Position numbers and translations under genes: made by a program. The notes below the pieces were generated by a model. The model was not told where the DNA came from and did no database searches. It saw nothing but the letters and a program-made list of their open reading frames with translations. This document shows positions 6,264-56,173 of a DNA stretch of 64,000 nt, piece by piece. How positions within the stretch are numbered: the first letter of the stretch is position 1; each line of letters begins with the position of its first letter. The stretch comes from an uncultured Gemmataceae bacterium. Lineage in GTDB: Bacteria > Planctomycetota > Planctomycetia > Gemmatales > Gemmataceae. The stretch is from assembly GCA_963750165.1 (NCBI GenBank), contig CAVVPN010000003.1, forward strand, positions 2,144,001 through 2,208,000, read 5' to 3'.

Positions 6264-6402
6264 GGGCAATGTGAGCGGCCTGGGCGGCGGTGGTGTGGTT
6301 CTGGGTCGCGGCTTCTAACCGCTGACAGGAGCCGCCGGCAGGAGCGGAACCGCGGTTGCGAACTGCCCGTGGGAGGCGAGCAAGCCACCACGAGCGGTTT
6401 TT
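6264..6402 (+). pseudogene. Orphan 3' remnant and terminator of a paralog of the Gly/Met-rich protein gene (54942-56087)
   Basis: Encodes GNVSGLGGGGVVLGRGF* (TAA 6316-6318) versus GNVGGGGVVLGRGF* in the intact gene. The downstream hairpin and T-tract align with 56088-56172. Confidence 0.85.
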
Positions 6403-6574
6403 GCGCCAACAGCGCGTACCGCAGCCGTCGTGACGAAGTTTCGGCCACGCAGACGAACAATCCCCCCGACGCCTCCCGAGTTCCTCCCGGGCACGGCGCA
6501 CCGCCAAGAATTTCTTGTTCATTTCTCCTGATTAAATCAGGGGTTACAGCAGTTCTTTCGTTTTCATCGGCCTC

Positions 6575-6590
6575 CGGCACGGTTCGTGCA
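6575..6590 (+). promoter_or_regulatory. Putative sigma54 -24/-12 promoter of the USP-like/RND/TolC operon
   Basis: CGGCACGGTTCGTGCA: GG(6576-77)-N10-GC(6588-89) with a GGCACG core; AT-rich tract upstream; about 65 nt before the ATG. Confidence 0.7.
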
Positions 6591-6653
6591 AAAAGGTACA
6601 AGCACGCAGCAAAACCGGCGGATCGGCCGTCGCGTGGCTGTGGGGAGACGTTC

Positions 6654-7412
6654 ATGACCGCGATCACTCTCAACCGCGTCGCCGTGTGGCTCGACGCTCT
6701 GGCGCCGCGGCAGGGAGCATTTCCGTTTGCCCTGGAGTGGGCGGAGCGACTGGGCTGGTGCCTGCAAGGCATCGTGCCGGCCGGTTGGGAGTCGGGCGGG
6801 CCGGACCTCCGGCAAATCCTGGACGCCTGCACGGGTGCCTGTGCCAACCACGGCGTCACCTGGGAACCGACCGCCGAGGGGAAAGCCAACCCCGCCGGGT
6901 TGTGCGCTGTCGGCGTCGGCCTGGCGCCGGCCGAACGCGAAGCGGTCGTCCGCCGGGCGCTGGCCGACGGACACACTGCTGTCCTGGTGTGCCCGCCGCT
7001 GTGGCAGCCGCTGTCGCGGGTGTTGATTTTGGACCAGCACCACCGCGGCTCGTTTCTGACGCGGGCGGCGAACCTGTGCCGCACTCTCGGCGTTGAGCCG
7101 GTGGTGCTCACGGTGGCGGCCTCGGAGTCCGAGGCCTTGACGGCCCGGACAGTGGCCGAACAGACCTTCGCCACCCAGCGCGTCGGGGCGGATGTGGATT
7201 TCATCGTCGGCTACGACCTGACGACGGCCGCGTCCTGGGTGGCGCGGTGGCGGCGCTGCACGCATCTGTTCGTTGAAGGCCACCCGTCCACGCCCTGGTG
7301 GCGCCGCTTCCTGGGCGACCAGGCGGCGGAATTGTTGTCCCTGGCTCGGACCTGCACCGTGCTGGCCCTGCCGCCCTCGGTCCCCACCCTTGCCGATGGG
7401 ACGCCGAATTAA
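6654..7412 (+). CDS. Divergent universal-stress-protein-like protein (first gene of the efflux operon)
   Basis: GGGGAG RBS; RVAVWLD, AVLVCP..WQPLSRVLIL and C-terminal CTVLALP resemble tandem USP domains. Confidence 0.6.
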   Translation: MTAITLNRVAVWLDALAPRQGAFPFALEWAERLGWCLQGIVPAGWESGGPDLRQILDACTGACANHGVTWEPTAEGKANPAGLCAVGVGLAPAEREAVVRRALADGHTAVLVCPPLWQPLSRVLILDQHHRGSFLTRAANLCRTLGVEPVVLTVAASESEALTARTVAEQTFATQRVGADVDFIVGYDLTTAASWVARWRRCTHLFVEGHPSTPWWRRFLGDQAAELLSLARTCTVLALPPSVPTLADGTPN

Positions 7413-7460
7413 TAATGATTTCATGTTCGCTGGTCTTTTTTGATGGAGTGAGGTTTGACA

Positions 7461-54548: not shown

Positions 54549-54696
54549 GCGCGATCTATTTTTTACCACACGCTCATTTTTTCACCAAACCTACCAATTC
54601 CGCCCCGACCTTCGGCTGCTTTCCAGTTCAAATTATTTCTCTTTTTCCTTTATCTTGAAGCAGTGTTAAGGCAAACTGCCTACGGCAGACTCCGTT

Positions 54697-54712
54697 TGGC
54701 ACGGCACGTGCT
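54697..54712 (+). promoter_or_regulatory. Sigma54 -24/-12 promoter of the Gly/Met-rich gene
   Basis: TGGCACGGCACGTGCT: GG-N10-GC, one mismatch to TGGCACG-N4-TTGCW; AT-rich tract upstream. Confidence 0.85.
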
Positions 54713-54941
54713 TCAAATACATAATCCGAAAATTGATATTGCTGTTTACCTGGCTTATCCTCCGCCAGGAGGGGCACTGCTGTGCTCCGGTGCGAGTGGG
54801 ATCGCGGAATCGTCCAGCCGGGGATTTTGTGCGCGCATCGCGAACTCATCGTGGTTCAGTGCCGCGATGGCCATGCGCCGGTCAAGAGAAAATGCGGTTC
54901 GCAACCTGAACTGTTTTCCATCTTTTTTTCGAGGAACCACG

Positions 54942-56087
54942 ATGTACGCAACCACGCAAACGCTGCGGCTCGCAGGGCTGGGAGGCCTGGTCCTGAGTCT
55001 CACCCTGACCGTGAGCCCGCCCGCCTACGGCCAGCGCATCACGCTCCGGCCGATTTCCACTTCTTACATGCCGATGAACCGCACGCTGAGCAACTATTAC
55101 CAGTACTCCGCCGTGCCGGGCAACCCGTTCAGCGCGCAAAACCAGCTGAACAACAACATCAACAACTACTACCAGAACCAGTCCAACCAGCAGCTGAACA
55201 CCACCACCGGCATCATCGGCAACAACCTCAGCCCGCTGGTGAGCGGCGGCTACGGTGGCGGTTACGGTGGCGGTTACGGTGGCATGGGCGGTTACGGCAT
55301 GGGTGGCATGGGTGGCTATGGCATGGGTGGCATGGGTGGCATGGGTGGCATGGGTGGCTACGGCGGCATGGGCGGTATGATGGGCGGCATGGGTGGCTAC
55401 GGTGGCATGGGCGGCATGATGGGTGGCATGGGTGGCATGGGTGGCATGGGCGGCATGATGGGTGGCATGGGCGGCATGGGTGGCATGGGCGGTATGATGG
55501 GCGGCATGGGTGGCATGGGCGGCATGATGGGTGGCATGGGCGGCATGGGTGGCATGGGCGGCATGGGCGGCATGGGCGGCTTCCCGTCGTTGAGCGGCCG
55601 CGGCATGGGCCAGATGGGCGGTGCCATGGGCCAGATGATGCAGTACGGCATGGGCGGCATGGGCGGTATGGGCATGGGCGGTATGGGCATGGGTGGCATG
55701 GGCATGGGCGGCATGGGCATGGGCGGCATGGGCATGGGCGGCATGGGCATGATGAACCCCATGATGATGGGCATGGGCGGCATGGGCATGGGCGGCATGG
55801 GCATGGGTGGCATGGGCATGGGCGGCATGGGCATGATGAACCCCATGATGATGGGCATGGGCGGCATGGGCATGGGCGGCATGGGCATGGGTGGCATGGG
55901 CATGGGCGGCATGGGCATGATGAACCCCATGATGATGGGTATGGGTGGCATGGGCATGGGCGGCTACGGCATGGGTGGCATGGGCATGGGTGGCATGGGC
56001 ATGGGTGGCATGGGCATGGGCGGTATGGGCATGGGCGGCATGGGCAATGTGGGCGGCGGTGGTGTGGTTCTGGGCCGCGGCTTCTAA
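54942..56087 (+). CDS. Secreted low-complexity Gly/Met-rich protein with Asn/Gln/Tyr-rich N-domain (381 aa)
   Basis: GAGG RBS; signal peptide ending PAYG-Q; third-position variation in Gly codons supports this frame; own promoter and terminator. Confidence 0.88.
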   Translation: MYATTQTLRLAGLGGLVLSLTLTVSPPAYGQRITLRPISTSYMPMNRTLSNYYQYSAVPGNPFSAQNQLNNNINNYYQNQSNQQLNTTTGIIGNNLSPLVSGGYGGGYGGGYGGMGGYGMGGMGGYGMGGMGGMGGMGGYGGMGGMMGGMGGYGGMGGMMGGMGGMGGMGGMMGGMGGMGGMGGMMGGMGGMGGMMGGMGGMGGMGGMGGMGGFPSLSGRGMGQMGGAMGQMMQYGMGGMGGMGMGGMGMGGMGMGGMGMGGMGMGGMGMMNPMMMGMGGMGMGGMGMGGMGMGGMGMMNPMMMGMGGMGMGGMGMGGMGMGGMGMMNPMMMGMGGMGMGGYGMGGMGMGGMGMGGMGMGGMGMGGMGNVGGGGVVLGRGF

Positions 56088-56129
56088 CCGCTGACATGGA
56101 CCGCCGCAAAGAGCGGAGTCTCAGTTGCG

Positions 56130-56173
56130 AACCGCCCGTGGGAGGCGATGAAGCCACCACGGGCGGTTTTTTT
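56130..56173 (+). terminator. Intrinsic terminator
   Basis: AACCGCCCGTGG-loop-CCACGGGCGGTT followed by a T run. Confidence 0.85.

Follow-up and report, generated by a model that had tools for sequence, protein, structure and literature searches.

The kinase-regulator genes and the pump genes in the window (the whole 64,000-nucleotide stretch of Gemmataceae DNA analysed here) are two pieces of one gene set that lie 50 kb apart in this source genome and are contiguous in related planctomycetes. With slightly better than even confidence, we propose that a conserved set of kinase, activator, universal stress protein (USP), RND permease and two outer channels was split, that the pump and a recruited Gly/Met-rich (GM) protein are likely co-induced, probably by envelope stress, and that the GM protein is predicted to exit by Sec and not via the pump. 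The repeat between the loci, both sigma54 sites and the genes listed by the initial annotation (kinase, sigma54 activator, GM gene, MFP, RND permease and four OEP-domain genes) were all found in the window (Table 1).

Table 1. Features of the two loci and their surroundings, in window positions.
Feature	Positions	Strand	Basis or remark
Remnant: last GM-gene codons (..VVLGRGF-stop at 6318) and decayed terminator	6251..6402	+	directly behind aldose 1-epimerase gene; self-comparison, blastn, folding
Tandem 19-bp palindromes, predicted activator sites	6430..6468	.	motif scores 14.9 and 4.2
P2, predicted sigma54 -24/-12 promoter	6575..6590	+	regex and motif model
Tandem-type universal stress protein (USP), 252 aa	6654..7412	+	AlphaFold model and structure match; below family cut-offs
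Membrane fusion protein (MFP)	7461..8858	+	TIGR01730 above cut-off
RND permease, 1107 aa	9026..12349	+	planctomycete branch of uncharacterised clade; His tail (12284-12322) not conserved
Outer membrane factor 1 (OMF1/TolC1)	12605..14251	+	conserved partner of RND pump
Outer membrane factor 2 (OMF2/TolC2)	14316..16160	+	conserved second partner of RND pump
TolC3/4, two outer membrane factors, other subfamily	19815..23238	+	outside GM/USP unit
Sensor kinase, KinB-like four-helix periplasmic domain	51505..53055	+	Pfam matches below cut-off
NtrC-type sigma54 activator (REC-AAA+-Fis HTH)	53091..54548	+	domain matches
Three palindromes, predicted activator sites	54534..54588	.	motif scores 7.1, 14.5, 12.2
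P1, predicted sigma54 -24/-12 promoter	54697..54712	+	regex and motif model
GM protein gene, 381 aa	54942..56087	+	signal-peptide-like start (by eye), Asn/Gln/Tyr-rich block, Gly/Met repeats, VVLGRGF end
Intrinsic-terminator-like hairpin and T-run	56122..56173	+	RNA folding

One gene set at two loci, probably split

We found the USP gene in 19 of 251 relatives (Gemmataceae). The kinase-regulator pair lies upstream of it, contiguous and on the same strand, in 13 of these 19; the pump gene is 3' of the USP gene in 18, and both OMF orthologues follow in nine, several others stopping at contig ends. Because kinase, regulator, USP and pump are contiguous in 13 of the 19, the two loci derive from one unit, as the initial annotation had proposed. 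A related-locus search with the window's kinase returned only three loci, all distant. CsrA and SMI1/KNR4 genes often stand between regulator and USP in the relatives, and PMC12316311 describes an enrichment of USP and CsrA genes among the sigma54 regulons predicted for Planctomycetia. The GM protein, which had been counted as a member of the ancestral unit, drops out of it: a GM gene lies between regulator and USP in 0 of the 13 intact operons, and is absent from the fetched DNA of 12 of them. The GM gene therefore entered as an insert specific to this lineage, and the split likely left 6251-6402 as its scar.

Positions 6281-6402 and 56050-56171 share 122 nt at 88% identity, and with a 9-nt gap the repeat grows to 6251-6402 versus 56028-56171. 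The upstream copy reads ...GNVSGLGGGGVVLGRGF-stop and begins immediately 3' of a stop codon, identifying it as a GM-gene fragment. The terminator part has whole-genome blastn matches at these two places only. A GC hairpin with a U-run is predicted for both copies (-49.2 and -42.0 kcal/mol); a simple terminator scan picked up neither. The assembly does carry base-level errors, with 13 frameshift junctions, 5 of them at the word GCGCA[AG] (8.9% expected), but a misassembly at 6251-6402 is extremely improbable: the copies diverge by 12% and by a frame-keeping 9-nt insertion, whose added codons are similar to those at the 3' end of the C4 paralogue, both are internal to one 3.56-Mb contig, and the junction is predicted independently from the relatives. 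A search of sequencing runs gave 24 entries, all with shares of at most 0.08, and no run that contains this DNA. A programmed frameshift in two C4 GM paralogues was rejected, as each lacks 2 nt at a run of GCGC, a pattern shared by other junctions in the assembly.

Promoters, activator motif and sensor kinase

P1 and P2 are the sole matches to the sigma54 regex within the window. A de novo search of 20 upstream regions of relatives, with the source genome left out of training, yielded the motif ATGGnGAAnnnTTCnCCAT, the best two sites of which are 19-22 bp apart in 19 of the 20 regions with no spacing imposed. When tandem palindrome and sigma54 box were scored together across the source genome, P1 (the GM promoter) ranked first with 34.2 and P2 (the pump promoter) fourth with 30.3 among 6,011 candidates; in the reversed-genome null no score among 8,140 candidates exceeded 25.5 (the reversed and complement nulls are an identical set and were counted once). 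P2 is the sole candidate in the source genome with a palindrome score of at least 19. P1 is one of 11 with at least 12.4, and its sigma54 box gives 21.7 of its 34.2, i.e. most of its rank. Since a model trained on relatives ranks both promoters this highly, co-regulation is predicted, in agreement with the shared control suggested earlier; with the same predicted activator sites and a sigma54 promoter in both pieces, the pump and the GM gene are likely co-induced. Duplication of one promoter into the other was discarded as too weak (alignment score 70 against 32.6 +/- 10 for shuffles, with a maximum of 70 in 200).

The activator carries REC, AAA+ and Fis-type HTH domains and is thus a sigma54 enhancer-binding response regulator. 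Three paralogous activators in the source genome, 53-71% identical to it, may use the same sites. Held-out predicted promoters were also found upstream of trehalose-6-phosphate synthase genes in the loci of four relatives, where the kinases are only 47-51% identical to the window's kinase and may sense another signal. The KinB likeness of the sensor domain comes from PF16767, matched at E<=0.05, below the Pfam cut-off, by 14 of 21 members of the sensor family, and from a match to PDB 3kkb (E 0.002). A His, a second His and a Cys (His65, His145 and Cys154) are conserved in the family (80-88% of 49 members); the window's kinase is without two of them, His65 and Cys154.

The GM protein and its gene class

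The GM protein contains 160 Gly and 98 Met among its 381 residues, with no His or Cys, and its mature form (352 aa, 97 Met) has no Asp, Glu or Lys and is almost uncharged. Its Asn/Gln/Tyr-rich block is common to three paralogues in the source genome, one of which has Tyr/Ser/Phe in place of Met and none of which has a P1-type promoter. The N-terminal block was found in 0 of 150 family genomes and in 0 of 76 candidates of 209-667 aa from a 5.8-billion set; the Atlas gave no usable match. The wider class comprises 37 genes at 22 other loci, none with a motif-type promoter or a USP-linked pump. The source genome encodes 20 Gly-rich proteins with signal-like starts (judged, as for the GM proteins, by eye and a hydropathy rule), and Gly-rich genes are only weakly enriched around the module, at 4 per 620 kb against 20 per 9.6 Mb.

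Only two GM genes have a motif-type promoter, that of the window and one in G199, a second genus by genus label (SdhA was uninformative on kinship). The G199 gene lies 3' of OMF2 of the same pump, behind a dedicated promoter that was not in training and has the strongest held-out score (50.2). The expectation that GM genes adjoin this RND clade in relatives was thus upheld for one more genus, with a different position and another C-terminal type there.

It is unlikely that the GM gene is a mobile multi-copy passenger that came to lie 3' of the regulator's promoter accidentally and has no functional tie to the pump. Its class does occur at many unrelated sites, frequently in tandem arrays, and the promoterless paralogues and weak enrichment fit such an origin, but the dedicated G199 promoter and the remnant, which places a GM end once directly before the pump promoter too, argue against it. 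Less probable still is export of a self-assembling GM protein through the tripartite pump, as the initial annotation had offered. GM-pump adjacency in two genera, the conserved pair of differing outer membrane factors and an unusual proton relay speak for it; against it are the signal-peptide-like starts, the intact operons in whose fetched DNA no GM gene occurs, the absence of the pump from all 22 other GM loci and the fact that RND pumps transport small solutes. The GM protein was also rejected as a substrate of type I or RND protein export in general, given its signal-like start and exporter linkage in two genomes only.

The pump, its partners and the case for metal

The USP-like gene has no Pfam or NCBIfam match. 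Its AlphaFold model (pLDDT 86.9) matches tandem USPs (3ab7, E 4e-9, TM 0.69), which identifies the modelled protein as a tandem USP with two USP-type alpha/beta domains. TolC3/4 had been attached to the same pump, an assignment we withdraw: their identity to TolC1/2 is only 26-30%, three housekeeping genes intervene, they have no sigma54 site, and their counterparts in relatives adjoin the orthologue of the RND on the source genome's contig C12. They belong to that paralogous pump.

The RND permease scores 333 against TIGR00914 (cut-off 701) and falls outside the CusA/CzcA branch (FastTree, support 1.0; 2 of 51 rows shorter than 940 aa left out, and a second tree built without rows L250, L252, L255, L262 and L256, which were lost at the ORF filter). 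The periplasmic three-Met site of CusA (Met573/623/672) is Ala580/Asp637/Ala685 here. CusA M391, M403, M486 and D405 are kept, M410 is Cys, and M501, M1009, E939 and K984 are absent; the aligned Met394, Met406, Met478 and Cys413 are 96-100% conserved in 120 homologues. The TM4 motif DFG..D..E of CzcA is lacking, with Asp402 replaced by Ala and AIGPMIDSAIICLEN present, with minor variants, in the 120 homologues. Nor is the D407-D408-K940 relay of HAE-1 pumps (AcrB/MdtBC) present: the corresponding residues are D408, S409 and A979, and the permease forms a separate branch. Its relay is unusual, with one TM4 Asp and a Lys977 that precedes the position of AcrB Lys940 by two residues. A tail with at least 5 His in the last 60 residues occurs in only 15 of the 120 homologues. 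Branch, score and missing three-Met site speak against a strictly defined HME pump, and the unconserved tail against the metal feature that had been read into it.

Indirectly, through matching counts, the RND clade is likely clade F of PMC10872679, presented there as a candidate HME group that includes Cus3A of Myxococcus and is found more often in acidic habitats and those rich in metals. P. phymatum has two clade-F pumps, both plasmid-borne, and our own search found two matching places on P. phymatum pBPHY01, an agreeing count. Neither Cus3A nor the P. phymatum protein is in our tree, so we infer clade-F membership. The sister RND in Phyllobacterium is near Dps and oxalate decarboxylase genes.

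A metal module, with a kinase that responds to Cu(I)/Ag(I), a GM protein acting as a SilE-like periplasmic methionine sponge and metal export by the RND pump, is possible but doubtful. It keeps a place because the RND clade is likely clade F, a candidate metal group; the CusA-equivalent membrane residues, the His, His, Cys of the sensor family and the 97 methionines of mature GM also fit. Against it stand the lack of the three-Met site, Glu939, Lys984 and the CzcA Asp402, the TIGR00914 score and branch, the unconserved His tail, the absence of a copper ATPase, oxidase or chaperone gene from the neighbourhood genes listed, a GM protein free of His and Cys with a Tyr/Ser/Phe-based paralogue, and a kinase that has lost His65 and Cys154. 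The module probably serves as a general response to envelope stress and is no proven metal system. A stress role is suggested by the trehalose-6-phosphate synthase genes behind held-out promoters, by the CsrA and SMI1/KNR4 genes between regulator and USP, and by the Dps and oxalate decarboxylase genes near the Phyllobacterium RND.

Proposed mechanism and significance

For the envelope-stress reading we envisage that, in an ancestor of the lineage, a GM gene was acquired 3' of the regulator's promoter while USP-MFP-RND-OMF1-OMF2 received a second promoter, and that a later rearrangement parted pump from regulator, leaving 150 bp of GM end and terminator before the pump. The phosphorylated activator would bind palindromes 100-150 bp upstream and open both promoters. 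The proton-driven pump would rid the periplasm of a small toxic solute, and the USP would be a putative cytoplasmic accessory that senses nucleotides. Beyond the inner membrane the GM protein would build up into a flexible, greasy matrix prone to polyproline II and would strengthen the envelope; its 97 methionines might incidentally absorb oxidants or soft metals.

More tentatively, and against our own expectation of the odds, this may be an undescribed Gemmataceae sigma54 regulon, in which a His/His/Cys sensor switches on a USP and a clade-F RND pump that has two different outer channels. At least two lineages would have added to it, independently of each other, a disordered sponge of 100 methionines that buffers soft metals or oxidants on the outer side of the inner membrane. 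If true, Sil/Cus would have here a functional analogue made of unrelated components. RND pumps under two-component control are common; the operon, the activator motif and the GM class had no description in the open-licence PMC and bioRxiv literature searched. The motif offers a first way into the regulation of an unnamed Gly/Met protein class and of an RND clade with barely known substrates, listed in PMC10872679 as a candidate metal group only.

Comparison with known systems

CusRS-CusCFBA, Sil with SilE (a small periplasmic Met-rich partner) and CzcCBA-CzcRS likewise combine two-component control, a tripartite RND pump and a small periplasmic Met-rich partner, and some membrane Met positions of CusA align with the window's RND. 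They use an OmpR-type regulator, whereas here there are a sigma54 activator, a USP, two outer membrane factors and a separate RND branch; in place of a small partner stands a His-free Gly/Met chain of 352 aa, and the RND has neither three-Met site nor CzcA Asp402. KinB-AlgB of Pseudomonas aeruginosa resembles the present pair in joining a KinB-like sensor domain to an NtrC-type activator, AlgB; its targets are unlike those of the window's kinase-activator.

The GGM/GMG repeats of the GM protein recall the Gly/Met tails of GroEL, described in PMC12571646 as forming polyproline II helices, but the GM repeats span ~270 residues of a stand-alone, predicted-exported protein. MrpX of the Azospira suillum MrpX-YedYZ system is a comparable stress-induced exported Met-rich protein; the account in PMC4436054 gives it 20% Met, 44% charged residues, a co-transcribed reductase and ECF-sigma control, whereas GM is almost uncharged with no reductase nearby. 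An MrpX-type Met scavenger system was rejected for want of a co-transcribed yedYZ and of Asp, Glu or Lys in mature GM; MsrP-like and MsrA-like genes, recognised by motif, are on other contigs or far from GM.

For the pump, clade F of PMC10872679 corresponds to the 'uncertain function' cluster C of PMC2891726, including Myxococcus Cus3ABC, as far as these sources describe them. The window's RND is only ~35% identical to proteobacterial members and has Ser for the second TM4 Asp, but like them it lacks Lys940, and it groups with the Phyllobacterium match with support 1.0.

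A conserved operon carried as two pieces

The genome of this uncultured Gemmataceae bacterium (9.6 Mb, 12 contigs) carries in the window, on contig C3, a kinase, a sigma54 activator (the regulator) and a Gly/Met-rich (GM) protein gene, and ~50 kb away a USP-like gene followed by MFP, RND and two outer membrane factors, OMF1 and OMF2. All the genes named in the initial annotation, its repeat and its two sigma54-type sites are present. The upstream repeat copy is a fragment, ~20 codons to VVLGRGF-stop plus a weakened terminator, immediately 3' of an aldose 1-epimerase gene. The USP-like gene has no family hits; its predicted fold resembles the tandem USPs TTHA0350 and Rv2623.

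Kinase matches at E<=1e-75 occur in 129/200 family genomes and RND matches at E<=1e-200 in 20/40 relatives, the nearest named RND homologues being from Gemmataceae and Pirellulales. We found the USP in 19/251 relatives, 18 of which have a pump gene after it. In 13 of the 19, kinase and regulator are found upstream in the same orientation (including one genome with the kinase 6.6 kb farther off and one read across two contigs); they are divergent in one genome and absent from the fetched DNA in five. Nine have both OMF1 and OMF2 orthologues downstream. The regulator-USP interval holds the promoter alone or small genes, CsrA and SMI1/KNR4 among them, and a GM gene in none of the 13. This gene order identifies kinase-regulator-USP-MFP-RND-OMF1-OMF2 as the conserved unit, which this genome carries as two pieces. 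The proposal that both loci derive from one unit is thus supported, but not the inclusion of GM in it. The GM gene end before the pump promoter suggests a former order regulator-P1-GM-terminator-P2-USP-pump, P1 and P2 being the predicted sigma54 promoters; that this fragment is a misassembly is very improbable. The 40 kb separating the pieces carries housekeeping genes, ruling out an integrated element.

Coordinates of features (window positions unless a contig is named)
Feature	Position	Strand	Remark
Repeat copies	6251-6402, 56028-56171		GM gene end and terminator
P2; P1	6575-6590; 54697-54712		
USP-like gene	6654-7412		
RND	9026-12349		
TolC3/4	19815-23238		
Small secreted-looking gene	23351-23803	-	after TolC4
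CehA/McbA-family metallohydrolase	23976-26351	-	EF-hand-like insert
Beta-helix protein	47743-50169		three DUF4214 repeats
Kinase; regulator	51505-53055; 53091-54548		
GM gene	54942-56087		
Obg-type GTPase	16185-19170	-	frame-split
Acetate kinase	39912-41089	-	frame-split
Redoxin-like gene	43428-43994	-	frame-split
REP-like palindromes/inverted repeats	494-573, 33650-33729, 28226-28311, 50175-50324, 39004-39173, 16166-16239, 12373-12435		
Tandem GM paralogues	C4:771372-774140		
VWA/TPR protein	C3:827949-832830		~1,600 aa

The beta-helix gene lies 1.3 kb upstream of the kinase, and DUF4214 genes with Gly/Phe tails also occur within the operon in two relatives' regions (L096, L100). Several intergenic regions contain long palindromes or paired inverted repeats of REP-like character, and some of these recur at distances of tens of kb. 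The three genes that look frame-split probably reflect assembly errors.

Predicted shared palindrome and sigma54 control

A motif search of 20 upstream regions of relatives, own genome excluded, found a 19-bp palindrome, ATGGnGAAnnnTTCnCCAT. Pairs 19-22 bp apart occur in 19/20 regions (exactly 20 bp in 16), mostly 100-150 bp upstream of the sigma54 box. Among 6,011 candidates in the own genome, P1 ranked first and P2 fourth, with ranks 2 and 3 at a paralogous RND operon on contig C12 and a site behind the closest paralogous regulator. The highest score in the reversed genome was 25.5. Ranks 5 and 6 belong to a divergent gene pair that we take to resemble an aldo-keto reductase and a cupin. Ranked by palindrome score only, P2 comes first of all candidates and P1 is within the top 11; P1 has three palindrome sites (spacings 17 and 19 bp), which are under-scored by the fixed 20-bp model. 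Two points count against shared control: the total score of P1 leans on its sigma54 box, and three paralogous activators could share the predicted sites.

Held-out promoters carrying the motif lie upstream of pump genes, of the kinase gene itself and, in four loci, of trehalose-6-phosphate synthase. Trehalose synthesis genes adjoining this kinase family have the same palindrome-plus-sigma54 signature in L115, L117, L122 and L124. The kinase sensor domain is KinB-like. According to the available text of PMC12316311, the predicted sigma54 targets in Planctomycetia include USP and CsrA genes; the window's pump is not mentioned there. On the sensor domain, the held-out targets including trehalose-6-phosphate synthase, and USP/CsrA as sigma54 targets, we lean towards a general envelope-stress regulon.

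The pump and the metal hypothesis

The RND scores under every NCBIfam RND cut-off, with HAE-type models above the CusA/CzcA model. Trees place it in a branch of planctomycete proteins that is separate from CusA/CzcA, AcrB and MdtBC and has uncharacterised proteobacterial pumps as its sister group. It lacks the CusA periplasmic Met site and CzcA Asp402, and its His-rich tail is not conserved among homologues, so that neither the HME assignment nor the tail as a metal feature was upheld. A metal module is accordingly unlikely, although three membrane methionines and one cysteine align with the CusA relay and the sister group, whose count in P. phymatum matches that of clade F, probably corresponds to this clade as described in the accessible part of PMC10872679, where it includes the copper-induced Cus3A. 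This likeness keeps the metal idea alive, short of showing it. The residues His65, His145 and Cys154, conserved in the sensor family, are a potential metal or redox site; of the three, the window's kinase keeps only His145. At RND residue 977, members of the closest subclade carry a Lys that lies two positions ahead of AcrB K940, and they have one TM4 Asp; the proton relay is possibly shifted.

TolC3/4, first assigned to this pump, have orthologues (62-74%) in 3/120 relatives, and these flank the C12 RND orthologue in 2/4 regions fetched; they therefore belong to another pump. A gene similar to the small one after TolC4 lies between RND and OMFs in L288.

Gly/Met-rich proteins

Three further GM paralogues in this genome share an Asn/Gln block: a tandem pair on contig C4 and a single copy on C3 that is rich in Gly, Tyr and Ser. 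The block had no match in 150 family genomes or among 76 candidates of 209-667 aa from the 5.8-billion set. None of the three has the palindrome-sigma54 promoter or lies beside this pump. Both tandem copies lack 2 nt at one and the same GCGC run; since other junctions in the assembly share this context, systematic miscalling of bases is the likely cause.

A DNA pattern for repeated MMGGM matched 22/252 family genomes (9/90 genera) and, as pattern matches without gene context, 26/201 genomes across the class. The 38 regions around family matches held 37 small GM genes, spread over 22 loci. Where their starts are visible these look signal-like; a Gly/Met body follows, and the ends are fixed, for example FAGKGMGGFNGKKAL or GGGVFF. 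A further 8 loci have GM loops within a ~1,600-aa VWA/TPR protein. The own-genome VWA/TPR protein has long internal Gly/Met loops, and orthologues in several relatives. Several of the 22 loci face, in convergent orientation, the ABC ATPase gene that the own C3 paralogue also faces; this shared context ties the GM types together.

The expected adjacency of GM genes to this RND clade was absent from these 22 loci, where no GM gene had a promoter score >26, but was found in a second genus: in G199, OMF2 is directly followed by a GM gene whose own promoter, a sigma54 box plus two palindromes, scores 50.2. The contig of G034, a genome from the G199 genus, covers ~200 bp past OMF2. The GM-pump link holds in two genera only, with a putative function; that the GM gene is a chance hitchhiker seems doubtful. 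Within the envelope-stress reading, the GM protein would be exported by Sec, may be disordered or polyproline-II-like by analogy with what is available of PMC12571646, and would act as a matrix with spare methionines. We give little credence to the pump as an export route.

Comparison with known systems

We found no description of the operon, the motif or the GM class in the open-licence PMC and bioRxiv literature, the scope of the search. The RND's sister group matches what the accessible portion of PMC2891726 describes as a cluster of 'uncertain function'. MrpX, as far as the excerpted PMC4436054 describes it, has similar chemistry to the GM protein, which lacks MrpX's charge and reductase link. 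The operon's parts are all of known kinds.
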